From contig JADJWH010000001.1 of the NCBI GenBank assembly GCA_016716465.1, positions 365,414-429,413 on the forward strand: a stretch of DNA of 64,000 nucleotides. The letters are read 5' to 3'. Positions 6,648-53,526 of this stretch are shown one piece after another; within the stretch, counting starts at the first letter, position 1, and the number at the start of each line of letters is the position of its first letter. The notes under the pieces were generated by a model that saw only the letters and a program-made list of their open reading frames with translations, searched no databases and had not been told where the DNA came from. Source of the DNA: Gammaproteobacteria bacterium. Its GTDB lineage: Bacteria > Pseudomonadota > Gammaproteobacteria > SZUA-140. Position numbers and translations under genes: made by a program.

Positions 6648-7850
6648 GTGATGCTGACGGATACCAAGCTCCGAAATTTGAAGCCCCAGGACAAGCTCTA
6701 CAAGGTGAACGACCGCGATGGGCTCTATGTGGCGGTGACACCAGCGGGAGGTATCTCCTTCAGATACAACTATTCGATTAGCGGTCGACAGGAGACGCTG
6801 ACGATAGGCCGGTATGGCAAGCGTGGCGTCACGCTTTCAGAAGCGCGAGAACGCGTCAGCGAAGCAAAGAAGATGATTGCGGCAGGGAAGTCACCGGCCA
6901 GGGAAAAGGCGCGTGACAAGAAGCGCGTGAAGAATGCCGAGACGTTCGGTGCATGGGCCGAAAAATGGCTGCGCGGCTATCAGATGGCTGAGTCGACACG
7001 CGACATGCGCAAGTCAGTCTACAACCGTGAGTTGAAGAAGCGGTTTGGCAATCAGAAATTGTCCGAGATTACCCATGAGGATCTCCGGGCAGTGACTGAT
7101 TCCATCGTCGAAAGAGGGGCTCCGGCAACAGCAGTTCATGCTCGTGAAGTAGTGTTGCAGGTTTTTCGTTGGGCAATTGAGCGCGGGCAGAAAGTAGAGA
7201 ACCCGGCGGAACTGGTTCGCCCTACCAGTATCGCCAGATTCGAGCCGCGCGATCGGGCATTGAGTCCTGCTGAAATTGGTCTGATGTATCGGTATATGGA
7301 TCGAGTCGGAACGTCGCCGCAATATAGAGCCGCGATAAAACTGCTGTTGCTGACCATGGTGAGAAAATCCGAGCTGTCCAATGCCACCTGGGCTGAGATC
7401 AATTTCAGCGAGGCTCTTTGGACTATTCCGAAAGAGCGAATGAAGCGCAGAAACCCGCACCTGGTGTATCTGTCACGTCAGGCTCTGGACATCTTTATCG
7501 CTTTAAAGACCTTTGCAGGTGGATCCGTATTTGTGCTCCCCTCGCGCTATGACTCAGACATCCCGATGAGCGCCGCTACCTTGAACCGCGTTCTGGCATT
7601 GACGTATCAGGCGGCCCAGAAAGACGGCGAACAGCTCAGCAAATTTGGCCCGCACGATCTGCGTCGTACAGCCAGCACCCTATTGCATGAAGCCGGCTAT
7701 AACACTGATTGGATTGAAAAGTGTCTTGCCCACGAGCAGAAAGGCGTGCGGGCAATCTATAACAAAGCCGAATACCGGGAGCAACGAGCTGCAATGTTAC
7801 AAGATTGGGCGGATATGATTAACGAGTGGACTAACGTGAAGCGGCAGTAA
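6648..7850 (+). CDS. int: P4-type tyrosine integrase
   Basis: N-terminal DUF4102-like LTDTKLRNLKPQDKLYKVNDRDGLYVAVTPAGGISFRYNY. C-terminal catalytic HDLRRT...IYNKAEY (R-H-R-Y). An ATG at 6651 is also possible as start. Confidence 0.9.
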   Translation: MMLTDTKLRNLKPQDKLYKVNDRDGLYVAVTPAGGISFRYNYSISGRQETLTIGRYGKRGVTLSEARERVSEAKKMIAAGKSPAREKARDKKRVKNAETFGAWAEKWLRGYQMAESTRDMRKSVYNRELKKRFGNQKLSEITHEDLRAVTDSIVERGAPATAVHAREVVLQVFRWAIERGQKVENPAELVRPTSIARFEPRDRALSPAEIGLMYRYMDRVGTSPQYRAAIKLLLLTMVRKSELSNATWAEINFSEALWTIPKERMKRRNPHLVYLSRQALDIFIALKTFAGGSVFVLPSRYDSDIPMSAATLNRVLALTYQAAQKDGEQLSKFGPHDLRRTASTLLHEAGYNTDWIEKCLAHEQKGVRAIYNKAEYREQRAAMLQDWADMINEWTNVKRQ

Positions 7851-8465
7851 ATTTTAGTAACTGAGGCCCGATCAGACACACAATGCCTGATTCCAAAGCG
7901 GACGTAGGCGATCGTCGGCTTTGGGCGGCTGCCGGCCAAAAAGCGACCACTCGGCCGGGAAATCCGAACGTCCGCTTTCCGTCGATGCGGTAACCCTCCA
8001 CCCTACGTGACAACTGCACGATTCCAAGAGGCTTAGCTGCTCGACTCGATGCAGGATGGTAGCGGGGGCAGGATATGCTCTGTTCCGACAGTTCCTATGC
8101 GAATTCATCTAAAGTAACCTCACTCTGTCAATAGACGCAAGCGCACCGGTACGGATTTTTTATCATACAAGACAGTGCACTCCAGATAGTATTTACGCCA
8201 TCAAGGATTGTACAACTTGACCAAAGGCTGAGCGTTCGCGATGTTTGATAACTCTGCGTATTCTTCTCAATTTACGCGCGCAGGCGCAGCGTAGGAGATA
8301 CTCGCCAAAGGCCTAAGTATTCTCGCTATGCAGCAGGAGACGGCTGGAAAACCAATGCAATGTTGGCTCAATATGCAAAAGTGATCGACGCGCTACACGG
8401 TGGTTCTGCGGAACTCGATGAGAAGTGCGGGCGAAGCCTGATCATGAATTAAGGAGAAATACAAC

Positions 8466-11400: not shown

Positions 11401-12116
11401 ACCATCAGTACTGGTGTTTCAAATCCAGCCAATCCGACGACCCAGATTATATCAAGAAAGTTATTCGCAAGGAGGTCGACACCATAAACGCCGTTCGTTT
11501 TCGCGCTATTCAACTAGCGTCCCAAGACGTTCTCGGCGTCCTCATGGCCCAATGGAACAGCACCCTCCTGAACGGAATCTCTAACTACGACGCCCTACCT
11601 GCGCCAGTCAACTCAAATAGGCTATCCGAATTAGCAACCGCGCTATATGGCGGGCGCAAGAAACTAGAAGCTGCACGTCTTGCATACATACTCGCCCTTG
11701 AAGTCGCGTACGGTGAGGAATGCATCTATTCCCCACGGGCGCATAAGACCCTGCTCGCCCAAGGCCAACTACTGGCGACTAATCGATTCTTGTCCTCTCC
11801 ATCATTAACGCCAAAGGGTGAAGATAAAGGTCTACTTAAAGATCTAGCTGAGCCTATTCGAATGATGGAATCGTCAATGCATTATGCCGCTGCCATTGAT
11901 CTTTCACAGGAAGGCGCTCTGCCTGAGCTAGCGGACATTAAATATTCTTGCGCCGTAGGACTTGGAGGGGCAGACCGTCTCGCCCAGTATGCATCAGTTC
12001 ATCACGCTTGGGTTTCGAAACATGGCGCTGATCCAGACGCGGTTTTCGACGAGTATCTTCAGGTATTCCGCGACGATACCCCGCCTGACGCTGTTGCTGA
12101 AGAGGCTATTCAGTGA
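8466..12116 (+). CDS. Large secreted protein of unknown function (1216 aa), Sec signal peptide, long coiled-coil/Q-rich central region
   Basis: N-terminus MNFGIYHKALLATTFLVSSSVLADD. ~48% GC, far below the island (~58%) and core (~70%). No catalytic motif recognised. Confidence 0.8.
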   Translation: MNFGIYHKALLATTFLVSSSVLADDLIQVDFPAPESSCSSGVVCGSHRLLIQSRYSRDPARFNVMRELYRGNPSRAREVMIGYQEYYSPFHFEPSIWDFYSVGRTIFSKNPIKSGAPKALRWLTTDDVFPEGQRKPKFVNPDQFTNPAMEGRPLTSDRIEYLRRKREIQDDPDTGRTDKQFLRFFATDDGVIQRDDVSGYEQDILILSSIPAEEADKRQNYVSYMNQKYGHTPETIEQGVLVARDYIAKDSNSPLIGQEEEAFRRLRENHEDEIIEIENKMAGLEQLRRQDDANQLQIQQLEKEIAQKASALEEKLRTEHAESGEQLLSEASSDEEPVNQEQEAPPAADETVAAQPPKEVTPKCGKHSYGGAPLCSDHHYELTVFGLTGELMGNTIILFGGDADVAAKFDGFSKGIIYGADGLSYLSKNGFGGDPTDVLTAMNSVAFSANLLISVFSSGEEDPMQEVFEQLFAILDVLLQQQQQILENQQDMIASQASILYSIETIRSALQNLQEQELEQRALILQQFANTNSLVTASYVDLQSRIEALREDVALAPLYIAIDNLQAALNLNADDNHELTQESQDLSQAVARLNIPIRRLPLNPPQLTIQQLKDEYNSNWTEKRRAISSNDARLHYWALLSPFCKDELTCSVYKGAPDVEGLQSLANTYATAADLLSMTPEGRDFLQQDITGTFAELSNAIEQLNAITQVARRHLPQIYENYASSIEELRSLTHQYGTAALASVGGTQFGASPLLRYPWRNFQSLPDGTAPRQVTFDLSQGHLDEVLIQLMQENVLRLAPEALEQMTEEQLANHSMMKEYRSLYLSSRVAANLGLGIFRKDPWPRYDQTSNLQNNHDRRHFLHLFLMADPLMVEDDAVRGRLESLMSRETGDKAIYDAAITKGWITNVLGGSAYASNMFEIYDGGAAPANNPYCRSYQTLGIPSSMCVVKAAERWITDHPVEVPMNQERWEVVRPCGVDHQYWCFKSSQSDDPDYIKKVIRKEVDTINAVRFRAIQLASQDVLGVLMAQWNSTLLNGISNYDALPAPVNSNRLSELATALYGGRKKLEAARLAYILALEVAYGEECIYSPRAHKTLLAQGQLLATNRFLSSPSLTPKGEDKGLLKDLAEPIRMMESSMHYAAAIDLSQEGALPELADIKYSCAVGLGGADRLAQYASVHHAWVSKHGADPDAVFDEYLQVFRDDTPPDAVAEEAIQ

Positions 12117-12534
12117 GTTCTCGCAATGCACACTCCACTTTCTGACGATCTTCCTCAATGCGTTCTATCGCCTGATTCAGGTTTATAATCTCTTGTTCTT
12201 TGTTTAGCCCATTACCGACCGACACGTCATTTCTTCGTTGCCTGAGCGCTGAGAGTTGACCAGCTACCCCCTCTAGCTGCCACTTTGCTCTTTCGATGTA
12301 TCCATCGATATCGCGCGACTGATTCGGGCTTAGCGATGTTTTCTGTCCGCTCGAGAAAACGTCGAATGAAACACCAGTCAATATCCCGCAATTACTCCAG
12401 GCCTTGTAAACCTTTTCTAAGGTGCCAGGTGTGAAGCTTTCCTCGGCGGACGACACCCCTGCCAATATGACGAACCACACGCATGTAAGAAACAGCTGTT
12501 TCACTCGCATTCCCTCCTCATTAACAAAATACAT
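12106..12534 (-). CDS. Small secreted coiled-coil protein (start probably at the internal Met at 12510)
   Basis: MRVKQLFLTCVWFVILAGVSSAEE signal peptide. Convergent with the 1216-aa gene and overlapping its 3' end by 11 nt. Same low GC. Confidence 0.55.
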   Translation of the reverse strand: MYFVNEEGMRVKQLFLTCVWFVILAGVSSAEESFTPGTLEKVYKAWSNCGILTGVSFDVFSSGQKTSLSPNQSRDIDGYIERAKWQLEGVAGQLSALRQRRNDVSVGNGLNKEQEIINLNQAIERIEEDRQKVECALRELTE

Positions 12535-26207: not shown

Positions 26208-26775
26208 ACAACGAATGTTGTCTGTCCTCGTGCCCGCATTGTTACTCGCGATAGGCGGGGGTTCTTCCGCATTGGCGGATCTGACAGTGATTTATGACAG
26301 CGGCCAAACCCAACCTTTGTCGCCGTTACTTGGTCCGTTCCAGGCGGATGAAACGCCGTCGACCGATCCTGCCAAAGCAAGCGAACCGAATCCATCGTCC
26401 AAATCTATGCTCGGCCCAGCAGTATTGAGTAACTTGTTGCCGTTGCACTCACCCGGATTGGAGGTCGGCGATAGTGGTGACACTCCACTGAATCCCGAGG
26501 TGCTGACGCGGCTCGCGCAGGGTAATCCGCGCCCGTTTTTTTTAATCGGATCGGACGCGGTGTCATTGCAGTGGCTGGCCTATCACCGGGACACACTCCG
26601 GCGCCTGGGTGCGGCGGGCATGTTGGTGCAGGCCGATACCGAGGCCGACGTTAGACGGGTTGCCGAGGTGGCGCAGGGCTTATCCATCACCCTGGGTTCA
26701 GGGAGTGATCTGGCCGCGGCGCTGGCTATTCATCATTACCCGGTATTGATTAGCCGTGATGGCATCCGACAATGA
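26194..26775 (+). CDS. ICE conjugative-region protein (TIGR03765-like)
   Basis: Signal peptide. Synteny. Confidence 0.4.
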   Translation: MSIRKQRMLSVLVPALLLAIGGGSSALADLTVIYDSGQTQPLSPLLGPFQADETPSTDPAKASEPNPSSKSMLGPAVLSNLLPLHSPGLEVGDSGDTPLNPEVLTRLAQGNPRPFFLIGSDAVSLQWLAYHRDTLRRLGAAGMLVQADTEADVRRVAEVAQGLSITLGSGSDLAAALAIHHYPVLISRDGIRQ

Positions 26776-28901
26776 GCACGCATCCAATGGAAGCGCTGCT
26801 GCGGCCTCCCGTGGAATTGTGGTCCACCTGTACGGCGTTAGCGGCTGGCACGATGGCCTGGCTCGCCCCTTGGGCCTTGATGATGCCATCGGGTATTGCA
26901 ACTGCTACAAGCCTGACCTTTTTCGGTTTTGGCATGTGGCGTGGGCGCCAGGCATGGCGTGTGCTGCGTTACCAGCACAACATGAAGCGACTGCCGAAAT
27001 ATCAAGTGCGGGCCAACCAGATCCCCGTCAGTCATCATAAGCTGTTTTTGGGCAAAGGCTTTCGCTGGACCCAGCAACACACCCAACGTCTTCGCGATAC
27101 CCTGAAGCCCGAGGTTCAACGTTACGTTCAGCCAGGCACGTACTACCAGTGGGCACGGCAAAAGGAGGTAGCCTGGGAATCGATTCCAATCCTGTCTTTA
27201 CTGGCCAAAGCCCTGCGCAGTCGATCCCGTTGGAACCCGCTGGCACCATTACCTGCCGTCGGCGGCAAGCCCGCACTGCACGCGGTTGATCCTCATGAAC
27301 AGCCCGTGTGGATGGATCTGGGCGAACGGGTTGGACACACGCTGGTGTTGGGTACCACGCGCGTCGGTAAGACACGCCTGGCGGAACTGCTGATTACCCA
27401 GGACATCCGTCGGGGTGATGTCGTCATTGTCTTCGATCCGAAAGGGGATGCCGATCTGTTGCGTCGCATCTACGCCGAGGCAAAGCGGGCCGGTCGTCTG
27501 GACGATTTTTATCTGTTTCATCTCGGTTTCCCCGAATTGTCGGCACGCTACAACGCCATCGGTAATTTCTCCCGCATCACCGAGGTTGCGACCCGTATCG
27601 CCAATCAGTTGCCCAATGAGGGCAACTCCGCTGCCTTCAAAGAGTTCGCCTGGCGTTTCGTCAACATCATTGCGCGATCGCTGGTGGCCCTGAAGCGCCG
27701 ACCGGACTACCAACAGATCCGCCGTTACATCAACGACATTGAACCCTTGTTTGTGGAATATGCCGGCCATTGTGCCGACATTGCTGGCATCGATGCCTGG
27801 GCGTCCCTGGTTGAAGAACGCGCAGCGGATATCAAAGAGCGCAACCTGTCCAATGCACTGCGTGGCCGGTCGATGGAAGCCATAGCGTGTATGCGGTTGC
27901 TGCAGGAGAGAGCCATTTATGACCCCGTCCTGGATGGACTTATTTCCGCATTCAAATACGACAAAACCTATTTCGACAAGATTGTGAGTTCCGTTGGCCC
28001 ACTGATGGAAAAACTGACCACCGGCACCATCGCCGCTCTGATATCGCCTGATTACCAGGATGAACACGATGCCAGGCCGATCTTTGAATGGATGGATGTG
28101 GTGCGCCGCAAGGGCATCGTTTATGTGGGACTGGATGCTCTCACCGATACGACGGTGGCCAGCGCGGTCGGGAATTCCATGTTTGCAGATTTGGTGTCTG
28201 TGGCGGGGCATATCTACAAGCACGGCGTCGCGACTAATGGCGCTGATGCGTCAGAATCAGAACGCCAGCGGCATTCCATCCCCACAATCTCCCTGCATGC
28301 GGATGAGTTCAACGAGTTGATCGGTGATGAGTTCGTGCCGCTGTTGAACAAGGCGGGAGGGGCAGGCTTTCAGGTCACGGCCTACACCCAGACCTGGTCG
28401 GACGTGGAAGCGCGTATCGGCAGTCGGGCCAAAGCGGGTCAGGTGGCCGGCAACTTCAACACAATGCTGATGCTACGAGTAAAGGAGCTGGATACCGCTG
28501 CGATGCTGACCGAGCAGTTGCCGCGGGTTGAAGTCTTCACCCTGATGAGTGTCTCCGGCGTCGATGATTCATCGGATCCCGGTTCCGGGGTCGACTTCAA
28601 ATCCCGCAACGAAGACCGGATCAGTGTTTCGGAAGTGCCGATGCTGACCGCTGCCGATATGGTCACGCTGCCCAAAGGGCAGGCCTTCGCGCTGTTGGAA
28701 GGTGGCCAGCTCTGGAAAATCCGTATCCCGTTGCCGGATAACCGTGAGGATACGGCCATGCCAGGCGATTTTGAGGAGATGGCCGATGCCATGCGTCGCA
28801 GCTACATCACCAACGATCACTGGTATCGAGTCACTGACCACTGGTGGCACGCCGTCTCCGAGGCGACGGTCGAATCTGTAGATCCCGATGTGCAAACCTA
28901 A
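26772..28901 (+). CDS. traD: type IV coupling protein TraD (ICE SXT/TOL-type)
   Basis: N-terminal TM helices. Walker A GTTRVGKT. 709 aa. Confidence 0.85.
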   Translation: MSTHPMEALLRPPVELWSTCTALAAGTMAWLAPWALMMPSGIATATSLTFFGFGMWRGRQAWRVLRYQHNMKRLPKYQVRANQIPVSHHKLFLGKGFRWTQQHTQRLRDTLKPEVQRYVQPGTYYQWARQKEVAWESIPILSLLAKALRSRSRWNPLAPLPAVGGKPALHAVDPHEQPVWMDLGERVGHTLVLGTTRVGKTRLAELLITQDIRRGDVVIVFDPKGDADLLRRIYAEAKRAGRLDDFYLFHLGFPELSARYNAIGNFSRITEVATRIANQLPNEGNSAAFKEFAWRFVNIIARSLVALKRRPDYQQIRRYINDIEPLFVEYAGHCADIAGIDAWASLVEERAADIKERNLSNALRGRSMEAIACMRLLQERAIYDPVLDGLISAFKYDKTYFDKIVSSVGPLMEKLTTGTIAALISPDYQDEHDARPIFEWMDVVRRKGIVYVGLDALTDTTVASAVGNSMFADLVSVAGHIYKHGVATNGADASESERQRHSIPTISLHADEFNELIGDEFVPLLNKAGGAGFQVTAYTQTWSDVEARIGSRAKAGQVAGNFNTMLMLRVKELDTAAMLTEQLPRVEVFTLMSVSGVDDSSDPGSGVDFKSRNEDRISVSEVPMLTAADMVTLPKGQAFALLEGGQLWKIRIPLPDNREDTAMPGDFEEMADAMRRSYITNDHWYRVTDHWWHAVSEATVESVDPDVQT

Positions 28902-28903
28902 GC

Positions 28904-29635
28904 ATGGCGGAACCGACTGATCCCCGCCGGCCCGTCACACGCCCCGGCACATTCTCCCGCTTTTTGACAGGGCTAGCCCAGTGCCTTAAATGGCTGTTTC
29001 TCTCCCTGATATTTTCCGTTCTGATTGAATTGATCGGTATGGTGTTCTGGTGGGAGGAGCAGGGGCTGGATCACAGCCGACAGATGCTGGTGAACGAGTT
29101 GCAGTTCCTCGGCGCAGACTTTCACCGCAGCTGGTTAACGGCTCATCCCATGCAATTCGCCAGTGATTTGTCGGACCGGTTTTACCATATCGCCTTTGAG
29201 TGGACCGGTATTGTCGATCTTATCCAGTGGATTACGCCGGCCCCGGGCCTTGAAGAGTCCGGCGTGCGCCCGGTGCTGCACCGGTTTTACCGGCCGGTTG
29301 CTGACTATGTCCTGGCCGGTATGCAAATCACGCAGGTTTTTGCGGTACGTCTCGCCATCCTGACGCTGGCGACGCCGGTATTTGGACTGTTCACCCTGGT
29401 GGCACTGGTTGATGGTCTGGTGCGGCGGGACCTGCGGCGTTGGGGCGGCGGCAGGGAAAGCTCTTTCGTCTATCACTACGCCAAGAAAGCCGCCATACCG
29501 CTGATCATCATGGCCTGGGTGCTGTACCTGGCGCTACCGTTCAGTTTGCACCCGTCCTGGATCATCTTGCCGTTCGCTCTGGCCTTTGCCTTTGCTGTGA
29601 CCATCACGGCCAGTACCTTCAAAAAGTATCTCTGA
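28904..29635 (+). CDS. ICE integral membrane protein (TIGR03747-like)
   Basis: Multiple TM helices. Follows traD. Confidence 0.5.
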   Translation: MAEPTDPRRPVTRPGTFSRFLTGLAQCLKWLFLSLIFSVLIELIGMVFWWEEQGLDHSRQMLVNELQFLGADFHRSWLTAHPMQFASDLSDRFYHIAFEWTGIVDLIQWITPAPGLEESGVRPVLHRFYRPVADYVLAGMQITQVFAVRLAILTLATPVFGLFTLVALVDGLVRRDLRRWGGGRESSFVYHYAKKAAIPLIIMAWVLYLALPFSLHPSWIILPFALAFAFAVTITASTFKKYL

Positions 29636-29719
29636 TACAGTTGACTGTATCATTACAGTTTGCTAGGCTGTATTTAGGCACTGTAAAAATACAGTTTAAG
29701 TGCTGTTAAGGAGGTAAAC

Positions 29720-30121
29720 ATGATCGCTCAAGCCGAACAACTGCTGCAACGTGGTTCCAGTGTCACCAGTTCACTGCTGCCGGCGATTTTCGCTATTTTC
29801 AGCCAGTGGCGCCTGACCGGCGCCCAGCAGATGACCCTGTTGGGGCTCAGCAACGAGAAGACGCTCTATAACTGGAAGAGCCAGCCGGAAAAGGCCAAGT
29901 TAACCAGGGACCTGCTGGAACGGGCCAGCTATATCCTGGGGATCTACAAATCCCTGCAAATCCTGTTGCCCGATCAGGCGCTTGCCGATCAGTGGCTGGC
30001 TACCCCCAACGACAACCCGTTGTTCAACGGCACGGCCCCGCTGGACCGGTTGCTGGCCGGACAGGTGGTCGATCTGGCCGTGGTCAGGAATTTCCTTGAT
30101 GCGGAGCGGGGTGGCTGGTGA
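29720..30121 (+). CDS. Xre-like antitoxin with DUF2384 (ParS/MbcA-type) domain
   Basis: 133 aa. Its 3' end overlaps the start of the RES gene (GTGA). C-terminal ...LDRLLAGQVVDLAVVRNFLDAERGG typical of DUF2384. Confidence 0.7.
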   Translation: MIAQAEQLLQRGSSVTSSLLPAIFAIFSQWRLTGAQQMTLLGLSNEKTLYNWKSQPEKAKLTRDLLERASYILGIYKSLQILLPDQALADQWLATPNDNPLFNGTAPLDRLLAGQVVDLAVVRNFLDAERGGW

Positions 30122-30810
30122 TCGATATCGATACGCTACCGGGTAGCGAGACAAATGAACCGGTTTATCGGGTCATTCTGTCACGCTATCCGCAGATCCA
30201 CCTGTTCGAGCGGGTCTCCAATCCACAGGATTGGGACGTGCTCTATGCCGTGGAGTCTCTGACCAACCCCAGGTTACGTGATGAGGTGGGTGATATTCGT
30301 CTGGTGCCACCGGAAGATCGGGTGTATGGCGATGGCGCGTCCTGGATAATGGCTGCCTTCACTCACCCGCCGGTGGATGGACGAGGTGGCCGCTTCAATC
30401 GGGATTTCGGTATCTATTATTGCGCCGCGGATGAGACGGTCGCCATCGCCGAATCATCCTTCCATCGGGCACGATTCTTACGTGAATCAAGAATCGACAA
30501 GACCACCCAGGAGATGCGCGTTATCCGCGCGCAGCTGGGGCCGACAACCCTTCACGATGTACGGCACCTGGTCGGAAACGCTATCTACGATCCCGACGAT
30601 TACGGCGAAGCACAGACACTTGGCTATACGCTTCGGGCTGCCAATAGCTTCGGCATTCACTACCAAAGCGTGAGAGCGAAAGGGGAGTGCTACGGGGTGA
30701 TGCGGCCCAAGGCGCTCACCGATGCCATCCACTGGCGCTATCTGCGTTACCACTATGAACAGGGGTCAGTTGTGAATGTTGAATCCCTAGACGGCAGTGG
30801 CAGGAGGTGA
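30118..30810 (+). CDS. RES-domain toxin (ParT/MbcT-like NAD+-targeting)
   Basis: R...E...S signature in GRFNRDFGIYYCAADETVAIAESSFH, plus downstream H/Y residues. Confidence 0.75.
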   Translation: MIDIDTLPGSETNEPVYRVILSRYPQIHLFERVSNPQDWDVLYAVESLTNPRLRDEVGDIRLVPPEDRVYGDGASWIMAAFTHPPVDGRGGRFNRDFGIYYCAADETVAIAESSFHRARFLRESRIDKTTQEMRVIRAQLGPTTLHDVRHLVGNAIYDPDDYGEAQTLGYTLRAANSFGIHYQSVRAKGECYGVMRPKALTDAIHWRYLRYHYEQGSVVNVESLDGSGRR

Positions 30811-31406
30811 TGGCAATGTATAAAGAGCTGCTGTGGATCTTCACCCAACTACCGGACGATTACATCGTCCTAGATACCGAAACCACCGGCCTACCTGACG
30901 AAAACGGACTGCCGGACATCGTGACTCTTGGCATCACCGTGGTGAGCAATCGAGAGATTGCGGAATCCGTCGAGTTCAAGACAAGACCACAAAAACGCAT
31001 TTCAGAAGAAGCGCAGTCGATACACGGCATTACCAACAAACAGGCTGCCGGATTTGAATCCTTCGATTCACAGTGGCAGCAGATTGCTGAATACCTGAAG
31101 GATCAGCTCATAGTCATTCACAATGCCAGTTTTGACTGGCCGATCCTGTTGGATCACGTGGCCAGGTATGGTTTAACAATGCCACCATTACAAGGTGTAT
31201 TTTGCAGCCAGAAAGCAGCTATTCCTTGGGCACAGGCGACCGATTTGCCGTGCAGTTACAGAGGTCCATCGTTAGACACATTAACAAAAGCACTTGGAGT
31301 CGAAGATCTCAGGGTCAAAGAAGATGGGTTACATGGGGCGAAGATTGATAGCCGGCAGTTGGCTCAGATTGTAGAGGTGATGAGTCAAATTGAAAATATG
31401 GAATAG
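30810..31406 (+). CDS. DnaQ-like DEDDh 3'-5' exonuclease
   Basis: Exo I YIVLDTETTG, Exo II IVIHNASFDWPIL, Exo III LHGAKID. Its start overlaps the RES stop. GC ~48%. Confidence 0.85.
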   Translation: MAMYKELLWIFTQLPDDYIVLDTETTGLPDENGLPDIVTLGITVVSNREIAESVEFKTRPQKRISEEAQSIHGITNKQAAGFESFDSQWQQIAEYLKDQLIVIHNASFDWPILLDHVARYGLTMPPLQGVFCSQKAAIPWAQATDLPCSYRGPSLDTLTKALGVEDLRVKEDGLHGAKIDSRQLAQIVEVMSQIENME

Positions 31407-31572
31407 GTCTTAGCCGTGAATCACAGGGGTTAGAAATGTGCATGTAGGTCCGGCTAGAAATGCGGTCTCTCGATTTTCCAACTTAGGATGACCACGATGA
31501 AGAGAACACAGGAATCAACCCAATCATGGTAAGCAGCGGAAGCGGACAACTAGCGAAGGTTTCAAGATAAAG

Positions 31573-34500
31573 ATGCCACAATCACCTGAACTCGCCGGCG
31601 GCGAAGGTTTCACCTTTGAGGGCGATGCGGCTGCATTCTATCTCACCGCGCTGCTAACCGAGGCTTATGCACCCGGCATCGATGATCGAACCGTTGTTCG
31701 AGTTTCGGTCCAGCAACGCGATTTCGGTGAACCACTGGATGATGTGATCGTCGATTTTGAAGATTCCTCAAAGAACCCCGCCCGACTTAGCCTCCAGGTA
31801 AAGCGCTCGCTCACGATCAGCAGTGCAAAAACGAACAAAGACTTTCGCGAAATCATCCGCGACAGTTGGGCAACTCTCAACAAGTCAGACTTCCGCTTAA
31901 ACGTCGACCGCTACGGGGCCGCAGTTGGTACGGTCACCCCTGCCAAAGAACGAGCATTAAAGACCGTTTGCGATTGGGCCCGCGAAAGCCTGACGGCTGG
32001 CCATTTCCACGCTCGCTTTGCGACGGGCGGCTGCGCCAGCGCTGACATCACAATGGTTAAGGACGACGTCGTTACTCTACTGGAAGCATCGAAGGGGGCA
32101 CCATGCACGAGTGAAGAAGAGTATCAGTTCCTTGCTCACCTCGTGCTCATACAATTCGACTTCCTCCGCGAAGGCGCCACTGATCCCTCTGATGCCATTA
32201 ATCGTATTCAGGGTTGCCTCGCGCCCGAAGACGCAGCCAAGGCGCCGCTTGTCTGGTCTAGAACAGTTCAGCTGGCCCGTTCATCAGCTGGCAAATCAGG
32301 TCGGTTTGATCGCATACGTCTTGTTCGCTTGATCTCACCTGTCGCACGACTCCGCGGCGCGACCTCACTACGCTACGACCTCGATAAGTTAACGGAGCTA
32401 GCGAATAGCTACGCGAACCTCATTCCGGACGATATTGGGGGAACAAGACTCGACCGTATCTCGCTCCTTGAGAGCATGGACGCAAAACTCACCACCGCCC
32501 GTGCCGTCCAGGTCCGCGGACTTCCGGGAAGTGGCAAATCGGTCCTGGTGAGGCGAGCGGTGCAGCGTGCGCTAGAACACGGGCCGATTCTCTTCCTCAA
32601 AGCCGAACAGCTCGAAGGGACCAGCTGGATCAGCTATGCGACCTCGCAGGGTTTATCGGGTGCTCACCTAGAGCAACTTCTCGTAGAGATCGGGGCTGCC
32701 GGTACTCCCGTACTCTTTATCGATGCGATCGACCGCATCGACAAAGAACACCAGCCCATTATCGTCGATGTGATCCATGCCATTTTGGAATCACCACTAC
32801 TTGATAACTGGCGCGTCGTCGTTTCCCTTCGCGATACCGGCATTGAGATGCTTCGCAATTGGTTGGGCGAATTCCTCGATGCCCTGAAGGTAGAAACGCT
32901 AAGCGTTGGTCAGTTGAGTGACGATGAGGCCGAGTCGCTTGTAAAAGCCAAGCCACACCTGAGATCGCTTCTGTTCGGATCCGCTCAAGTGCAAGAAATA
33001 GTCCGACGGCCTTTTTTCGCGAAAGTGCTGAACCAGAGCTACATGGCCGACCCCAGCGCTTCGACATTCGTCCCCCAATCTGAAGTCGATTTGATTGAGA
33101 ATTGGTGGCGGCGGGGCGGCTACAATGAAACGGGTCAAAACGCACTTGAACGCCAGCGCGGACTACTCGACTTGGCAAGTGTTCGTGCCCGCCAGCTTAG
33201 CCAACCGATTGCCCTTGGCCAGTTAACTTCAGTCGCACACATCGATGACCTAAGATCAGACGGCATACTCCAAAATGCCCGTGAAGGGGTTTCCGTCAGC
33301 TTCGCCCACGATATCTTTTTCGAATGGGCCTTCTTTCATGTCCTAGCCGATCGCGGACTACACTGGATGGAGATTATCAAGGCCTGCGGCGAGCCACCGG
33401 CAGTCGCGCGCGTCGTCGAACTCACCTCTCAATGGGAGTATACGCAGGGAACAAACTGGCCGGCGTACCTTGCCCAAACGGAGAATTCGGAACTTAGATC
33501 GCAATGGCTGCGAGCGTGGCTGGTTGGTCCCCTCGGAACTGCGAGATTCGAAGTTGATGAAGACCAATTCGCGACGGCTGTCTTTGCCAACGACTTCAGA
33601 CTTTTCAGGAAGACGCTTGTCTGGTTTCAGGCTGAGAAGACCACCCCGAATGAGAATATCCTTACCGGCGGTCTCCCACGGGAACAACGCCAACGGTTCG
33701 CTGATCTTCTCGGATGGCCGTCCGACTTCTCCGCGTGGCGTCGCCTCATCAATTTTATACTGCGGCGCATTGCAGACATTCCGCAGCGGCTTTATCCAGA
33801 GATCGTCTCCATTTTCGAGGTCTGGCAGAATGCCTTGGCCGACCTTCGCAATCCGACGTCTCATGCACTTCTGCAACAATGCGCTGTCTGGCTCGCCGCC
33901 ATAGACGCGATCAGTGCCGCCGATAGACCTGATGAGAACTCTGCTTATTGGGCGGAGGTTCCCGAATTGGGTGCTCTCAGAAAATCGTTGGGCCAGCTCC
34001 TCTTAAGATCATCGAGAGCCGAGCCGTCTCTTGCAGCCGACTATTTGCGACGGGTCACCAGCTCGGAGCGCATCCGAGACGATGCATTCCATGACATCAT
34101 CGCCTACTCACCCATCCTTGCCCCATCGCTGCCCCAGTCAGTGGTCGAGCTTTCACTAGCGTTCCTGCTAGGGGAGCTTCCGGATGAGCAAGTTGCCCGA
34201 GAAAAACAGGAACTTCATGACACGTCTGAGTGGCGCAAAGCAGTTTTAGCAAAGCCGGAAGCCGAACGGACGCGTAAAGAAAAAATGGCGCTTTCGGGCG
34301 GACTATATCTGCGAACCGTCGGCGATTTCAGCTACCACGACTGGGAAAGGCTTTCGATCCACGACGACCACCGAAGCTTCTGGCCCCCTTCGCCACTTCG
34401 AGAGCCATTTCATTCGCTTTTCCAATCATCTCCCGACCATGCACTGCGGCTCCTTCGAGAACTCTGCAATCATTCGATGACCGCATGGCGACAGCTGCAT

Positions 34501-36957
34501 CATCACTCGCGCGACCGTGGAGGTACCCCTATACCGCTCGAACTCACCTTTCCCTGGGGTACCCAAATTTTCTGGGGTACCGATCGAGAGTATCTTTGGT
34601 TTCGGTCGACGTGGGCACCTAAATCTATCGGCAGCGCATTCATGGCGCTCGAGGAGTGGTGCCTCACCCAGCTTGAGCACAGCCGGACTGTTGACGAGCT
34701 GATCAAGCAAATCGTAGAGGGGAACGAGTGCATCGCCATCCTAGGCATGGCATCAATGCTCGCGCTGCACACCGAGCGGGTGTCTGAAACAACATTGCCT
34801 CTGTTCACCTCGCAGCGCCTGTTGGCCGCGGACCATAATCGAATGGTGCAAGACCTTTCGTCAGCGTCGAACCTGATCGGTTTCACGAGTAGTGCTGACA
34901 AACCCCACATTGAAGCAATCCAGACGGCAAATGCTAGGACTGCCCGTAAGACACAGCTTAGTTGGATGGTACCCAGGTTTGTCTTTGCGACGGAGCCCCT
35001 CCGCGATCGAGCACGCGAAGCGATCCTCAATTTCAAGAACGATCTCCCCTTCCAGTACGAAGAACACCGCGACATTCTGGAGGCGCGGGAACACCTCACA
35101 AAGCAGGCACTCGAATATGCCGAGTTGGCAGAGCCGAAAAACTATCAGGCCTACCGCACCGAAGAGGGTTCGGACCAAGTAGCGATTGTCCACGTCAGCC
35201 CATCTGCCGCTCAGCCTGAAAATATCGCCAGGGCCGAAGAGGCTACTAAGTACCTGGGGCTTACCGGCCTTTGGACGTGGGCATCCAAATCATTCGACGA
35301 GAAGACACTGAACGACACCTATACGATCGAGGATGCCATCGTATTGTCCAAGGAAGCGGACACTAGCGACTTATTCGAAAACCCGAACAGCGAGTATGAA
35401 GAGGAACAGATCGGAATGCGGCGGGGTGCAGTCGCCGCCACAGCGGCCATAGCGCTTAACTTCCGAGAAGGGTGTATACACGAAGACCTTGAGTGGGCTC
35501 GTGATGTCCTAGAACGCGCGATCCGTCTGCCAGAAAAGTTCGATCTGATGTGGTCCCCCGGATCTGTCGTCCCGTGGCACCAGGGAATCTATGCGGCCCG
35601 AGGCCTCGCAGCGGATCTCCGGGAAGATACAGCGGCTCGCAGTACGGCTAATGACCTCCTCACGCTGATCGCGCATCCACTTGAAATTGTTGCGTTGACC
35701 GCTTTCGAAGAGGCCTGCAAGCTCTGGCCTAAGGACTCCAAGTTGACTTGGGCCGCGCTGATCTTGGCGTTTTCACTCTGCCGCGTTCCCTCGCGGCCGC
35801 GTGATCAGCCCCGTCAGCACAGTGAAGCACTCCATACATCAACTGAAGCACAAGCCGCTGTCAACGCGGCGCTTGCGTTCTATGAACATGGAAGCGAATG
35901 GGCGCCTCTCCCGTTACCGCCTCCAGCCTGGATGAAGGTCGAACCCGGGAAGGGCCGGCGTGGGCATCAAAGATACGAAGACTACGACGTGGATGATGCA
36001 ACCGACGCTGCTGAGGTATGGGGTGAACCGGATATCTTCTGGCACTCAAAGCAGGCTGCAGAAGTCCTTCAGCGCATCCCTTTCGACGAGGTTCTTAACA
36101 GCAGCGCAAAGAGCGTGCTTCTCGACTTCCTTGCCAGTGTTCTCGACTGGACCAATCAGAAGAATGCGCCACCGTGGGTAAAGCCCGGACGCCGTGATCG
36201 GTCAGCGACACAAATCTTTGAGTGGACGCATACGCTCGGATCAAGGCTGGGGCACGTGGCTGGCCTTATCCCGCTTGCCGACTTTCAGTCCCGCTTCCTT
36301 GACCCGATTTTAGACCTCGAAGGCGACAATTGCTGGGCTCTCCTCTCGCCATTCACGAGCACCTATGTCTGCGCTTACGTGTACGATGCTCCGGTCGTTC
36401 CAGTCGACACAGTTGCGATACTCGATCTCTGTCTCGGACGGCTCCTCCAGGACCCTACCTTCAAGCGCGACACCTACCGGAGCGGAGAATTTTCAGGCTT
36501 CGATCAACCCGAGCTTATTCGCACGTTGATGTTCGTCTCAGTCGAACGCGCGGATTTGGCCGCTCGCTACGTGAATGGCGACTGGTCCGAAATCAACCGC
36601 ATACTGCCCTTGATTGATCGTTTCATTCGCGCTGGCGGATGGGCTGCTTCAGTGGTGGACCCGTTCTTGACGCTATGTGAACGAGCTAGAGCCAGCTACC
36701 CGGCCGAAGCTTTCGCAGAACAAGTGCTCGCAATTATCGGCGACGGTCCCGACAGCCTTAAAGGCTGGCATGGAACATTCATCCCAGCACGTATTGCAGA
36801 GCTGGTGCAACACTTTGCTCATCGCGACGCGCCGATGACGCTGACGGTGGCACAGAAGTTCCTGCGAATCCTCGACATGCTAGTCGACATGGGAGATCGG
36901 CGGAGTGCGGCGCTTCAGCTTGGCGAGGCGTTCCGTGAGATTCGTGTGCCCGCTTAG
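31573..36957 (+). CDS. 1794-aa STAND-type P-loop NTPase with a ~310-aa N-terminal domain and ~1350-aa helical C-terminus (Avs-like architecture)
   Basis: Walker A VRGLPGSGKSVLV, Walker B VLFIDAIDRID about 60 aa later, VVVSLRDTG, LSVGQLSDDEAESLV, RRPFFAKVL (GxP-like). N-terminus has DDVIVD...LQVKRS, a possible PD-(D/E)xK. Confidence 0.7.
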   Translation: MPQSPELAGGEGFTFEGDAAAFYLTALLTEAYAPGIDDRTVVRVSVQQRDFGEPLDDVIVDFEDSSKNPARLSLQVKRSLTISSAKTNKDFREIIRDSWATLNKSDFRLNVDRYGAAVGTVTPAKERALKTVCDWARESLTAGHFHARFATGGCASADITMVKDDVVTLLEASKGAPCTSEEEYQFLAHLVLIQFDFLREGATDPSDAINRIQGCLAPEDAAKAPLVWSRTVQLARSSAGKSGRFDRIRLVRLISPVARLRGATSLRYDLDKLTELANSYANLIPDDIGGTRLDRISLLESMDAKLTTARAVQVRGLPGSGKSVLVRRAVQRALEHGPILFLKAEQLEGTSWISYATSQGLSGAHLEQLLVEIGAAGTPVLFIDAIDRIDKEHQPIIVDVIHAILESPLLDNWRVVVSLRDTGIEMLRNWLGEFLDALKVETLSVGQLSDDEAESLVKAKPHLRSLLFGSAQVQEIVRRPFFAKVLNQSYMADPSASTFVPQSEVDLIENWWRRGGYNETGQNALERQRGLLDLASVRARQLSQPIALGQLTSVAHIDDLRSDGILQNAREGVSVSFAHDIFFEWAFFHVLADRGLHWMEIIKACGEPPAVARVVELTSQWEYTQGTNWPAYLAQTENSELRSQWLRAWLVGPLGTARFEVDEDQFATAVFANDFRLFRKTLVWFQAEKTTPNENILTGGLPREQRQRFADLLGWPSDFSAWRRLINFILRRIADIPQRLYPEIVSIFEVWQNALADLRNPTSHALLQQCAVWLAAIDAISAADRPDENSAYWAEVPELGALRKSLGQLLLRSSRAEPSLAADYLRRVTSSERIRDDAFHDIIAYSPILAPSLPQSVVELSLAFLLGELPDEQVAREKQELHDTSEWRKAVLAKPEAERTRKEKMALSGGLYLRTVGDFSYHDWERLSIHDDHRSFWPPSPLREPFHSLFQSSPDHALRLLRELCNHSMTAWRQLHHHSRDRGGTPIPLELTFPWGTQIFWGTDREYLWFRSTWAPKSIGSAFMALEEWCLTQLEHSRTVDELIKQIVEGNECIAILGMASMLALHTERVSETTLPLFTSQRLLAADHNRMVQDLSSASNLIGFTSSADKPHIEAIQTANARTARKTQLSWMVPRFVFATEPLRDRAREAILNFKNDLPFQYEEHRDILEAREHLTKQALEYAELAEPKNYQAYRTEEGSDQVAIVHVSPSAAQPENIARAEEATKYLGLTGLWTWASKSFDEKTLNDTYTIEDAIVLSKEADTSDLFENPNSEYEEEQIGMRRGAVAATAAIALNFREGCIHEDLEWARDVLERAIRLPEKFDLMWSPGSVVPWHQGIYAARGLAADLREDTAARSTANDLLTLIAHPLEIVALTAFEEACKLWPKDSKLTWAALILAFSLCRVPSRPRDQPRQHSEALHTSTEAQAAVNAALAFYEHGSEWAPLPLPPPAWMKVEPGKGRRGHQRYEDYDVDDATDAAEVWGEPDIFWHSKQAAEVLQRIPFDEVLNSSAKSVLLDFLASVLDWTNQKNAPPWVKPGRRDRSATQIFEWTHTLGSRLGHVAGLIPLADFQSRFLDPILDLEGDNCWALLSPFTSTYVCAYVYDAPVVPVDTVAILDLCLGRLLQDPTFKRDTYRSGEFSGFDQPELIRTLMFVSVERADLAARYVNGDWSEINRILPLIDRFIRAGGWAASVVDPFLTLCERARASYPAEAFAEQVLAIIGDGPDSLKGWHGTFIPARIAELVQHFAHRDAPMTLTVAQKFLRILDMLVDMGDRRSAALQLGEAFREIRVPA

Positions 36958-37264
36958 CGCGATGAGCATGCTTAGTTGGCTTTGTCTGATTGGACCTGGT
37001 TCTGACAAACGTGGCTGTGAGAGTGATCAGTATGTTGAGCGGCAAACTGTAACGGATCGACGATGTTGATAGCGTTCGGAATAACGTTCGTCGGTTTCTA
37101 ATCCCGCCTTTTCGTATGTGAATATCGAATGTCCACTTTTGAACGTGTGACAGACTTTGTGTGACGACTAGAAAACCACCCCACCCACCGAATAGATTTT
37201 CCATCGTCCACCGCCACTAATTCTCGCACTATGCCCCGTAACAACTTACGGGAGCAGCAGTGCC

Positions 37265-37567
37265 ATGAAACGCCAATTCTGGCCATCTACCTTTCTGATT
37301 CTAGGCTTGTGCGTCGCGCCGGCGGCGTTCGCTGATGCAGACGCCGAGCGTGAGGCGCTGGCGAAAATCATCCATGAGCTCAATGCCCTCGAGACGCTAA
37401 TCAATCGCGCTGAGGTCAATGCTGATCGGGATTCCCGTATCCGATTTCGTTATGACTGGCTGCGTCAGGATCTGAAGCAGATCAAGGACGGCATCCAGTC
37501 ACACATCGATTCTCCCCGCGCGCAGCCTCGCTCATTTCCGCCGTTGCGCGGCGATTACCGTCGATAG
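37265..37567 (+). CDS. RAQPRD-family ICE protein
   Basis: Signal peptide plus SPRAQPRSFPPLRGDY. Confidence 0.8.
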   Translation: MKRQFWPSTFLILGLCVAPAAFADADAEREALAKIIHELNALETLINRAEVNADRDSRIRFRYDWLRQDLKQIKDGIQSHIDSPRAQPRSFPPLRGDYRR

Positions 37568-37576
37568 GTCTGGAGC

Positions 37577-37807
37577 GTGACCGCCGCGCAACAAACTGCA
37601 TTCCAGGCCGGTTCCGGTATTACGCCAGCCACCATGCTGACGGCTATCGCGTCGATGATTCTGGTGTTGGCGTTTGTCTGGGTTATCTGGGTGGCGTTAG
37701 GAGTTTTTCGGGCCTGGCAGGAAGGGCAGGCCACGGTCTTCGATCTGACCTGGAGCACTCTGCGAGCAAGCATTGTTTTGATGGTTTTGGGTTTCTATTT
37801 GCGGTGA
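37577..37807 (+). CDS. small ICE membrane protein (TIGR03758-like)
   Basis: Two TM helices. GTG start. Confidence 0.45.
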   Translation: MTAAQQTAFQAGSGITPATMLTAIASMILVLAFVWVIWVALGVFRAWQEGQATVFDLTWSTLRASIVLMVLGFYLR

Positions 37808-37907
37808 GTCAATCGAGAAAGTCCGGTAAGGGCAAACGGCGATGCATCGCAGTGGGATGCGGGGATAGGCCCCCTTTTTATCAGCGTTACAGAAGAGGAC
37901 ATTTGTT

Positions 37908-38285
37908 ATGGGTACATCAAATACAAAAAACGGCACCAACAAAAAATCGGCTGCCAATCGCAAATCGCTATTGGCGGCGGCCGCGGTGCTTTTCCCACTG
38001 CCGCTCTGGGCGGCGTTGCCGACGCCGGTCGCGCCGAGCACCGCTCCGCCGGCCGGTGACTGGATAGGCCTGATTCAGGGCTATATCAAAGATGGCGGTT
38101 TGGTACTCGGACTGGCCATTGCGGTTCTGGGATTTCTCTGGATCGCGTACCTGGGCTTCGCGAAATTCAATGAAGCTCGCCAAGGCAAGGCGGAGTGGGC
38201 TGAAGTCGGTGTCCTGGGGATCGTCGGCGCGATTGTGCTGATCTTCGCCAGCTATCTGCTCACAGAAGCGGCTGGCGTTATTTAA
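37908..38285 (+). CDS. T4SS pilin-like membrane protein (TIGR03745-like)
   Basis: Long leader, then hydrophobic segments, 125 aa. Confidence 0.55.
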   Translation: MGTSNTKNGTNKKSAANRKSLLAAAAVLFPLPLWAALPTPVAPSTAPPAGDWIGLIQGYIKDGGLVLGLAIAVLGFLWIAYLGFAKFNEARQGKAEWAEVGVLGIVGAIVLIFASYLLTEAAGVI

Positions 38286-50443: not shown

Positions 50444-50670
50444 TCGTTTTCGTACCAGCCGGTAGCATCGGTGCCGTCATCGAGTTTCCCTGTTCTGTAA
50501 TTCAGGGCTCCGCCTCGAACAGCACTGGAGACTGCATCATCAGACGTGGTGTCAGCGCTTTCAGCCAGCATACCAAGCATACTGCGCAGTAACTGGCCGA
50601 CCGCTGCAAAAATAGCGAAGACGGCTAGCAATATCTTTTGCAAACGAGGCCTTTCTTTTACTGTTGTCAC
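50440..50670 (-). CDS. small single-TM protein, last gene of the minus-strand defence operon
   Basis: Its ATG overlaps the stop of the DUF499 gene (ATGA coupling). Hydrophobic helix [15 protein letters not shown]. Confidence 0.45.
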
Positions 50671-53516: not shown

Positions 53517-53526
53517 GCTTTAGTCC

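Follow-up and report, generated by a model that had tools for sequence, protein, structure and literature searches.

Of the toxin-antitoxin systems that target NAD+, Xre-RES pairs belong to the better understood, and they have been treated as two-gene modules. The locus considered here has a third gene. It lies in a 64,000-nucleotide stretch of DNA from a gammaproteobacterium of the GTDB lineage SZUA-140 (GenBank assembly GCA_016716465.1, contig JADJWH010000001.1, positions 365,414 to 429,413 of the forward strand), which is referred to below as the window and is numbered from its first letter. In the window, an Xre antitoxin gene and a RES toxin gene are followed at once by a gene for a DnaQ-like DEDDh exonuclease. 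Does the exonuclease belong to the toxin-antitoxin pair and, if so, what could a nuclease contribute to it? We consider it probable, at roughly 60%, that positions 29641-31406 of the plus strand form one self-contained three-gene operon, consisting of the Xre-RES pair and a dedicated exonuclease. The best reading of this unit is a tripartite toxin-antitoxin/abortive module in which the exonuclease would be a co-expressed second enzyme, a function that we infer. The linkage of the three genes is well supported.

The three genes, their junctions and their upstream region

The antitoxin gene (29720..30121, plus strand, 133 amino acids) is preceded on the same strand by the Shine-Dalgarno sequence GGAGG at 29710-29714. 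It encodes an Xre-like helix-turn-helix domain (Pfam PF20432, 2.9e-11) and the DUF2384/Xre_MbcA_ParS_C toxin-binding domain (PF09722, 1.1e-9), and it also has a weak NCBIfam match to Xre_ParS_antitoxin. The toxin gene (30118..30810, plus strand, 230 amino acids) starts with GTG, and the RES domain is the sole Pfam match of its product (PF08808, 1.8e-28). The RES catalytic residues R92, E112 and S184, encoded on the plus strand at 30391-30393, 30451-30453 and 30667-30669, are invariant across 12-14 diverse sequences. A single-sequence search of the PDB with the RES protein gave no match; in a profile search, the best solved relative was NatT (8QNL, 1.8e-5), which depletes NAD and NADP (PMC11535050).

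The third gene (30816..31406, plus strand, 196 amino acids) encodes a stand-alone epsilon-like DEDDh 3'-5' exonuclease. Its longest open reading frame runs from GTG 30807 (30807-31406) and matches Pfam RNase_T/DEDDh at 1.8e-16. The residues of Exo I (D20/E22), Exo II (D107) and Exo III (H173-x4-D178) are all invariant in alignments of 27-28 sequences. Purifying selection acts on each of the three genes (dN/dS 0.06 for Xre, 0.08 for RES and 0.12 for the exonuclease). The initial annotation, made from the letters of the window, had named the three genes as Xre/DUF2384, RES and a DnaQ-like DEDDh exonuclease, and the Pfam domains agree with these identities; all three open reading frames are present at the positions given there, on the plus strand. 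It had also remarked on the complete set of Exo motifs, including the H-x4-D, and on a lower GC content in the exonuclease gene, both of which were confirmed. The GC content of this gene is in fact about 47-50%, as against about 58% in the Xre and RES genes, and the same offset (0.50 for the exonuclease, 0.57 for the toxin-antitoxin genes) is repeated in 71 related loci. Because the offset is constant across these loci, the low GC content appears to be an old, stable family trait. A recent insertion of the exonuclease gene, which low GC might otherwise imply, was rejected in view of this constancy and of the purifying selection.

All junctions had initially been described as overlapping. This description holds for the first junction, where the Xre stop and the RES start share the GTGA at 30118-30121. 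The overlap is kept in most of the 78 genome loci described below, and it couples the two genes in the manner of Type II Xre-RES pairs, co-transcription itself being predicted. The second junction is more likely a 5-nt gap. Both the GTGATG at 30807-30812, which had been read as the exonuclease start, and the AGGAGG noted with it are present in the sequence; the AGGAGG, however, abuts GTG 30807, leaving no usable spacing, and stands only 2 nt from ATG 30810. Neither of these two codons is conserved in relatives (for example L004, L007, L021, L045 and L057), whereas ATG 30816 is. The Shine-Dalgarno sequence AGGAGG (30802..30807, plus strand) falls within the 3' end of RES and precedes ATG 30816 by 8 nt, and a GGAGG-like sequence is kept at this position in most loci. 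The gene callers used for public assemblies likewise place the exonuclease start 5 nt past the RES stop. Given the spacing of the AGGAGG, the conservation and the gene-caller starts, the exonuclease most likely begins at ATG 30816, and it is most likely coupled to RES through a ribosome-binding site within the RES gene and a 5-nt gap. Four of the most diverged loci of the genome scan (L073, L075, L079 and L080) do have an overlap, ATGA or TGATG, and in more distant lineages the junction is a 1-11-nt overlap in some and a 9-12-nt gap in others. Since gaps and overlaps both occur, it is the tight coupling of exonuclease to RES that is conserved, while its exact form varies.

A putative sigma-70 promoter lies upstream of the antitoxin gene at 29641..29669 on the plus strand, with TTGACT as the -35 hexamer (29641-29646) and TAGGCT as the -10 hexamer (29664-29669); a 17-nt spacer lies between them. 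To judge from these elements it would be the promoter of the operon; a generic promoter scan missed it because the -10 hexamer is weak. Two palindromes accompany it. The first, O1 (ACTGTAtcatTACAGT, 29644..29659), overlaps the -35 hexamer and the spacer and is a putative Xre operator; the second, O2 (ACTGTAaaaaTACAGT, 29680..29695), lies 3' of the -10 hexamer and is a putative second operator. These are the only two perfect matches to ACTGTA-N4-TACAGT in the 64 kb, where 0.05 would be expected. The block of promoter and palindromes is kept across 75 aligned upstream regions, including those of loci outside conjugative elements. Distant three-gene lineages have other palindromes at the same position, as is expected if every Xre recognizes its own operator. 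The gammaproteobacterial LexA consensus is CTGT-N8-ACAG, and a LexA/SOS box was rejected for these palindromes, which have the spacing CTGT-N6-ACAG. A scan of positions 28500-38000 against Rfam gave no family match.

Recurrence of the unit and the exonuclease subfamily

In the database, 922 relatives of the exonuclease were found; the best 120 are 82-100% identical to it. A genome scan with one genome per species returned 80 loci, 78 of them with enough upstream DNA. The pairing of RES and exonuclease to which the initial annotation had drawn attention recurs at RES loci well beyond the window: in 77 of the 78 genome loci, Xre and RES genes immediately precede the exonuclease, RES lies upstream in all 18 metagenomic family loci with upstream sequence, both of two RES-anchored look-ups have the exonuclease downstream, and six of seven more distant lineages, treated below, repeat the arrangement. 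As the adjacency recurs in more than 100 loci, it is far beyond chance. The metagenome scan was made with an 8-sequence alignment and recovered the close family and generic dnaQ genes only, and many of the loci overall come from metagenome-assembled genomes. In most related loci, the antitoxin is 92-99% identical to that of the window.

The sole exception among the 78 genome loci, L066, has an N-terminally truncated exonuclease beside a chromosomal transporter gene and TIR-like genes. At positions 8121-12452 of that locus, open reading frames with TIR-like N-terminal motifs and a 673-amino-acid open reading frame follow 3' of the exonuclease fragment. This region looks like a defense island, the TIR-like motifs having been read from translations.

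The unit also has sharp limits. Where conjugation genes are missing, the nucleotide sequence of a locus matches the window from about 29,500-29,640 to about 31,350-31,425; the conserved block of about 1.8 kb thus extends from the promoter to the exonuclease stop, with variable DNA directly after it. Pairwise protein distance matrices of the three genes correlate with one another (Mantel r 0.47-0.68, p=0.001). The full set of three genes is intact in 32 of 34 complete loci in the conjugative slot described below and in 38 of 42 complete loci elsewhere. DNA searches of plasmids for near or distant copies gave only weak partial matches to the unit, and it was not found in the E. coli genomes or IMG/VR viral contigs searched.

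Two observations concern the immediate surroundings of the unit. In 11 or more loci with differing cargo (L009, L019, L021, L031, L034, L040, L048, L053, L055, L057 and L072), the first ~60 nt past the exonuclease stop contain a conserved stretch, CCTTGAGTCATGAT ... GGAATAG ..., in many cases with a GTGTCCGG/CGGACAC hairpin after it, which could be a 3' untranslated region element or a recombination boundary. The sequence past the stop in the window is a different one, common to loci that carry an Avs-like gene. In another locus (L088, positions 1-1694), the three-gene unit has a Cas9 gene 1.9 kb upstream.

What kind of exonuclease recurs in this way can be addressed from its fold. An AlphaFold2 model built on a diverse alignment reached a pLDDT of 94.4 and a pTM of 0.90; it replaced a first model with a pLDDT of 68. 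The top Foldseek match is the exonuclease domain of E. coli Pol III epsilon, 1J53 (TM 0.75 query-normalized and 0.83 target-normalized, rmsd 2.7 A), and the next matches are the DinG exonuclease, ExoX, PolC and a CRISPR-associated DnaQ domain. Searched against the PDB, the family profile finds PolC at 6e-26, epsilon at 9e-24, RNase T at ~1e-6, ISG20 (1WLJ) at 5e-6 and Cas2-DEDDh (8FY9) at 1.2e-4. Among other collections, the best PHROGs match is phrog_192, "DNA polymerase exonuclease subunit" (1.3e-32), while PADLOC returns only a generic DEDDh model (3.7e-25) and PDC-S48. By NCBIfam, the nearest models are the dnaQ and PolC exonuclease domains, with scores far below any equivalog cut-off (dnaQ 76 bits, cut-off 222.7), and the alignment with epsilon takes in no more than residues 8-178 of its 243-residue chain. 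With motifs Exo I, II and III on an RNase H-like fold, the protein falls within the DnaQ/epsilon-like DEDDh superfamily. Sequence and model together suggest a free-standing, DNA-type 3'-5' exonuclease, for which activity on RNA would also be possible.

Three narrower assignments were ruled out. The protein ends with the exonuclease domain at residue 196, which excludes a replicative Pol III epsilon subunit. Cas2-DEDDh is excluded by the lack of any cas gene in the operon or in the slot and by a match to 8FY9 of only 1.2e-4. The TONDO/ISG20-like clade, with ISG20 as its comparator, is excluded by a match of 5e-6 as against 1e-23 to 1e-26 for epsilon and PolC.

Among 1.84 billion representative proteins, 23 representatives of the exonuclease were found at E<=1e-30, followed by a sharp drop to generic DnaQ. 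The subfamily so delimited is small, and it is seen essentially only beside Xre-RES. Its members have a near-invariant N-terminal helix with the motif LLWxFxxLP, which Pol III epsilon lacks. The search of the 1.84 billion proteins revealed no subfamily member long enough to be a RES fusion. Matches on plasmids and phages are only 27-37% identical to the exonuclease and are generic DnaQ-like proteins, and they have little bearing on the subfamily. In three distant members of the subfamily (P0258, P0265 and P0280), catalytic residues of Exo I or Exo II are substituted (for example LNVATTG and IHSAAFHW) and the LLWxFxxLP-type helix is kept; to judge from these substitutions, they may be inactivated variants.

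Seven lineages with an exonuclease 42-54% identical to that of the window were looked up individually. Six of them again have the order Xre-RES-exonuclease, with the genes overlapping or nearly abutting, and all six lie in chromosomal contexts unrelated to conjugative elements, among genes for glycosyltransferases, a lipase, a group II intron or a lytic transglycosylase. In one of these (L171, 2446-3774), for example, a group II intron reverse transcriptase gene follows directly downstream of the unit. Across the distant three-gene loci, identity to the proteins of the window is 42-56% for Xre, 36-44% for RES and 42-54% for the exonuclease. The RES proteins of three-gene loci form at least three deep lineages, which are no closer to each other (32-49% identity) than they are to two-gene RES proteins of sphingomonad plasmids (41-48%). 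These plasmid relatives (~45% identical to the RES of the window) belong to plain Xre-RES pairs, one of which, on pSPHCH01, adjoins partition genes. Thus, the closest RES relatives outside the group are two-gene pairs, in agreement with the initial view that a three-gene RES module with a nuclease is not a standard arrangement. The exonuclease was either gained early and then lost in some branches or captured repeatedly, and both histories imply a functional affinity.

Setting in a conjugative element

The genes guaB (3107-4567) and guaA (4691-6343) and a P4-type tyrosine integrase gene (6648-7850) lie in a row in the window, which indicates an element integrated at the 3' end of guaA. This is an integrative conjugative element of the PFGI-1/ICEclc/pKLC102 type (MPF_G), and the three-gene unit is the first cargo of its traD/TIGR03747-RAQPRD slot. 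On the left, the slot is bounded by genes for the TraD coupling protein (26772-28901, plus strand; NCBIfam TIGR03754, score 1079.7) and for the TIGR03747 conjugative-element membrane protein (28844-29635, plus strand; NCBIfam 6.5e-90). The right boundary is a RAQPRD-like open reading frame of 100 amino acids (37265..37567, plus strand). It is read as such from its position and size, after the model of pKLC102 and a Methylophaga plasmid, and would be the RAQPRD-family gene of the element. It is followed by a 76-amino-acid open reading frame (37577-37807), which is TIGR03758-like by position only, again by analogy with pKLC102, and by a TIGR03745 gene (37908-38285), which was confirmed by a family match.

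With TraD/TIGR03747 upstream and the RAQPRD-like open reading frame and TIGR03745 downstream, the slot has the location of GI-Hotspot 8, the interval from traD to RAQPRD that holds varied defense systems in the Pseudomonas islands PAGI-2 and PAGI-3 as well as LESGI-3 (PMC12629846). In related elements, the same slot is empty (Methylophaga plasmid) or otherwise filled (pKLC102). A core conjugation gene was rejected on these grounds, and the unit is accessory cargo that forms no part of the conjugation machinery. In 35 of the 80 loci, it is found in the conjugative slot, as judged by TraD/TIGR03747 upstream or TIGR03745 downstream within 8-kb flanks. In the 28 loci where TIGR03745 is visible downstream, the unit is followed by 2.3-7 kb of variable cargo. 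Across loci, this cargo is rich in Gabija (GajA), PARIS (AriA), Septu (PtuA), Old, PifA, KAP NTPase and Avs-like genes.

The second, variable cargo of the window follows directly after the unit and encodes an Avs4-like STAND NTPase of 1794 amino acids (31573..36957, plus strand). It matches the NCBIfam Avs4 model at 1.4e-30, well below the cut-off of 1500 bits for that model, and PADLOC Avs4, DUF626_VIII and PDC-M54A. Among the related loci, this gene occurs only in L017, L018 and L024, and in L017 (Pseudohalioglobus lutimaris) the protein is 92% identical.

The unit is also found where the rest of the element is not. At least 9 further loci have a complete guaA at a distance of 0.1-4 kb upstream of the unit, mostly with only fragments and short open reading frames between them, and in some loci guaA abuts the unit directly. 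This arrangement indicates large internal deletions of the element. In L043, an N-terminal fragment of the integrase gene and a 3' fragment of TIGR03747 are retained, so that the guaA-adjacent loci appear to be decayed elements that have kept the unit. Its retention in such remnants suggests that the unit helps to fix defense islands next to guaA.

Other parts of the window carry further candidate defense genes. A block of four genes on the minus strand (50667-60923) encodes DUF499 (949 amino acids), DUF1156 (969 amino acids) and DrmD-like SNF2 helicase (1191 amino acids) proteins and a 301-amino-acid protein without a family match; it resembles a DISARM-like or DUF499/DUF1156 antiphage system. 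At 61283-63975 (plus strand), a gene for a QatA ATPase of 615 amino acids (1.4e-136) precedes a 281-amino-acid open reading frame, and this is probably the start of a Qat defense system that continues past the window edge. Near the integrase end, an open reading frame of 1216 amino acids (8466-12116, plus strand) has no NCBIfam match at 1e-5.

Possible workings, rival explanations and known systems

The steps proposed for Xre and RES have their basis in the characterized members of the family (PMC6436930, PMC11535050). Xre would bind to both palindromes (ACTGTA-N4-TACAGT) at the promoter and, with its C-terminal domain, would keep RES blocked. If Xre were no longer replenished, either through loss of the element or through host shut-off on infection, RES would be set free and would attack NAD+ or ADP-ribosylate a target, leading to arrest or death of the cell. 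Repression by Xre, neutralization of RES and the NAD+ target are properties that we infer by analogy. The exonuclease would be produced at a fixed ratio with RES and would act on free DNA 3' ends. We would guess, by preference, that the exonuclease renders the depletion of NAD+ irreversible: the NAD+-dependent ligase would fail, and nicks left open would be widened by the exonuclease. Degradation of invading DNA is a further possibility. Any such role of the exonuclease, including the ligase-nick idea, is speculative.

The abortive-infection function raised initially has circumstantial evidence in its favor, namely the position of the unit at the head of a defense hotspot (PMC12629846) and the precedent of aRES (bioRxiv 10.64898/2026.01.28.702374). 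Plain addiction, or stabilization of the element, is at least as well supported as defense, because the unit is retained in decayed remnants of the element. A stricter form of the proposal would make RES and the exonuclease an obligate two-enzyme suicide or immune module, with the exonuclease subfamily serving solely as a RES partner, and this we think unlikely. It has two versions. In one, RES would starve the NAD+-dependent DNA ligase and the exonuclease would turn nicks into lethal gaps, so that a metabolic arrest from which the cell could otherwise recover would become permanent; in the other, the exonuclease would dock on the Xre-RES complex through its N-terminal helix, sense free 3' ends that arise when phages or plasmids replicate, and release the toxin.

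Several points weigh against a three-gene module with a dedicated exonuclease. Two-gene Xre-RES relatives exist, and toxin-antitoxin function as such therefore does not require the exonuclease. In the seventh of the distant lineages (P0256; L170, 2769-3907), a 142-amino-acid Xre/DUF2384-like gene comes after the exonuclease, and the 4.4-kb contig shows no RES gene. Within the close family, the exonuclease is truncated beside an intact Xre-RES pair in L062 and L070, and RES is disrupted beside an intact exonuclease in L003 and L074. All four are metagenome-assembled genomes in which assembly errors are possible; taken at face value, the disruptions suggest that neither RES nor the exonuclease strictly depends on the other for viability. 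The ~100 close loci are not independent, because they belong to one spreading element family, and independent support for the linkage comes from about three deep lineages. No PADLOC model matches Xre or RES, and the lack of a match for RES counts here. The scan found no intrinsic terminator 3' of the exonuclease gene, so that read-through from the unit into the cargo is possible.

An exonuclease that is an independent passenger, for instance an antiviral or anti-plasmid nuclease that shares the toxin-antitoxin promoter and is stabilized and regulated by the pair, is possible but rather doubtful. In one version, attractive for an element that makes pili, it would protect against pilus-specific phages, as the TONDO DEDDh exonucleases do against MS2 and Qbeta. 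In stand-alone or two-gene form, DEDDh exonucleases do protect against RNA phages, and some of them are encoded close to conjugative pilus genes or on plasmids of the IncF-like type (PMC13344964). The three-gene unit has pilus genes next to it and lies in a defense hotspot, the composition of the exonuclease gene is unlike that of the toxin-antitoxin genes, two-gene Xre-RES pairs work without it, and a few loci tolerate disruption of just one of the two, RES or exonuclease. A free-standing defense gene would, however, be expected to travel alone, and the subfamily occurs away from Xre-RES only as the decayed fragment in L066 and on the ambiguous short contig L170. The coupling to the RES stop is kept down to 42% identity, in contexts without a conjugative element or pilus genes, and both sequence and fold place the protein with the DNA proofreading exonucleases rather than with the ISG20 clade (epsilon 9e-24 as against 5e-6; Foldseek). 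Chance adjacency, or a third open reading frame that is not a real gene, has only the compositional difference in its favor and is practically negligible in the face of more than 100 recurrent loci, a dN/dS of 0.12, invariant catalytic residues and a high-confidence structure model.

The remaining explanations give the exonuclease a different master or a different task. It is improbable that it serves the conjugative element, with a burst of expression in the repressor-free recipient aiding establishment by strand processing or counter-defense. The layout of operators and promoter would permit induction on entry, and the unit lies within the conjugation gene cluster in 35 of the 80 genome-scan loci. 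Distant DEDDh exonucleases (28-31% identical) are also found among small unknown genes, with RadC and a methyltransferase near one of them, on a conjugative Burkholderia plasmid and on an Aeromonas plasmid that is typed as non-mobilizable and has MPF_F genes. Against this, six distant three-gene lineages stand in ordinary chromosomal surroundings without conjugation genes, decayed and non-transferable remnants retain an intact exonuclease, related elements lack the unit altogether, and the slot is reported with defense genes and no known anti-defense genes (PMC12629846). That the exonuclease is a regulator or sensor of the pair, binding RES or Xre through the LLWxFxxLP helix and releasing the toxin on free 3' ends, or a second antitoxin, is very unlikely. 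Such a role would account for the near-invariant N-terminal helix that Pol III epsilon lacks, the loss of catalytic residues in P0258, P0265 and P0280 would suit a binding role, and co-expression with RES at a fixed ratio suits a stoichiometric partner. The catalytic residues are nevertheless invariant in every three-gene locus examined, which indicates that catalysis is under selection, and Xre-RES stays intact where the exonuclease is truncated, which argues against an essential antitoxin.

Full-text literature searches found no description of an Xre-RES-exonuclease module. The nearest published items are aRES, the DEDD dinucleotide nucleases encoded beside HipA genes, and the hotspot paper, in whose main text the terms "exonuclease" and "DnaQ" were not found (PMC12629846). 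The Xre-RES family would gain a new architecture from a widespread three-gene form, which comprises between several hundred and about 900 clusters of proteins at 90% identity, at least three deep lineages and an exonuclease subfamily of its own. Such a form would also tie the depletion of NAD+ to the processing of DNA ends, and no toxin-antitoxin or defense system has yet been described that combines the two. If the version in which the exonuclease docks and detects 3' ends were true, this would be a toxin-antitoxin system gated by nucleic acid. The unit is moreover a candidate for asking whether toxin-antitoxin units at the head of a hotspot are defense, addiction that locks the hotspot, or both.

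Several known systems share parts of this unit. The third gene of three-component toxin-antitoxin systems is a chaperone or a separate repressor. In these systems (toxin-antitoxin-chaperone, paaR-paaA-parE and omega-epsilon-zeta), a type II pair is likewise joined by a third conserved operon gene; in the unit described here, by contrast, the third gene encodes a nuclease and is placed after the toxin. The exonuclease has the DEDDh fold and the five catalytic residues in common with Pol III epsilon (DnaQ), the PolC exonuclease domain, the N-terminal exonuclease of DinG, and ExoX. Unlike epsilon, it has no C-terminal alpha-binding tail and no clamp-binding motif, and it has the extra conserved N-terminal helix; unlike all of these enzymes, it is encoded in a toxin-antitoxin operon and not with replication or repair genes.

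The TONDO/ISG20-like proteins are also small DEDDh exonucleases carried on mobile elements, sometimes by pilus genes, and some of them need an adjacent partner gene (PMC13344964). They belong to another DEDDh branch, with ISG20 as comparator, and the partner in our case is a toxin-antitoxin pair, not an auxiliary domain. In integrative elements of actinomycetes, DEDD deoxydinucleotide nucleases are encoded beside HipA-type kinase genes (PMC11706625), so that there too a DEDD-superfamily nuclease adjoins a toxin-type gene on an integrative element. That nuclease is NrnC-like, however, the toxin family and the host phyla are others, and the paper contains no evidence of a three-gene operon (PMC11706625). 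In aRES, a RES catalytic domain stands among defense genes, as it does here, and RES-driven NAD+ depletion can stop phage (bioRxiv 10.64898/2026.01.28.702374). The aRES protein is a stand-alone, two-domain protein of 300-600 amino acids, with a PF18870 N-terminal domain in addition to RES and without an antitoxin or operon partner (bioRxiv 10.64898/2026.01.28.702374). Membership in aRES was ruled out for our toxin, which has 230 amino acids, RES as its only Pfam domain, and both an antitoxin and an exonuclease as partners. The traD-RAQPRD slot with variable defense cargo is the same as that of GI-Hotspot 8, whose commonest content is reported to be CBASS type III (PMC12629846); unlike in that report, the slot of the marine gammaproteobacterial elements described here nearly always starts with the Xre-RES-exonuclease unit.

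The closest comparison is with the Type II Xre-RES systems, such as MbcTA of M. tuberculosis, ParST of Sphingobium, NatRT of P. aeruginosa, SlvTA of P. putida pTTS12 and KnaAT of K. pneumoniae. The same antitoxin-first order, an antitoxin with helix-turn-helix and DUF2384 domains, the R, E and S residues of RES, a 4-nt overlap between the genes and promoter palindromes are all found in the unit described here. Carriage on mobile elements is also shared, and Xre-RES pairs on such elements act as stabilizers (PMC7301842, PMC10896132, PMC6436930). The RES protein of the window is only remotely similar to the solved Xre-RES toxins (best NatT 8QNL, 1.8e-5), and its chemistry, as judged by family only, would be that of an NADase, an NAD+ phosphorylase or an ADP-ribosyltransferase. 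Unlike in the Type II pairs, a third coupled gene, that of the epsilon-like exonuclease, is conserved with the toxin. Because the architecture departs from that of a two-gene pair, the unit is a variant rather than a canonical member of this group. The association of the three genes is robust, and its recurrence in over a hundred other loci suggests a hitherto undescribed three-gene variant of the known Xre-RES system.

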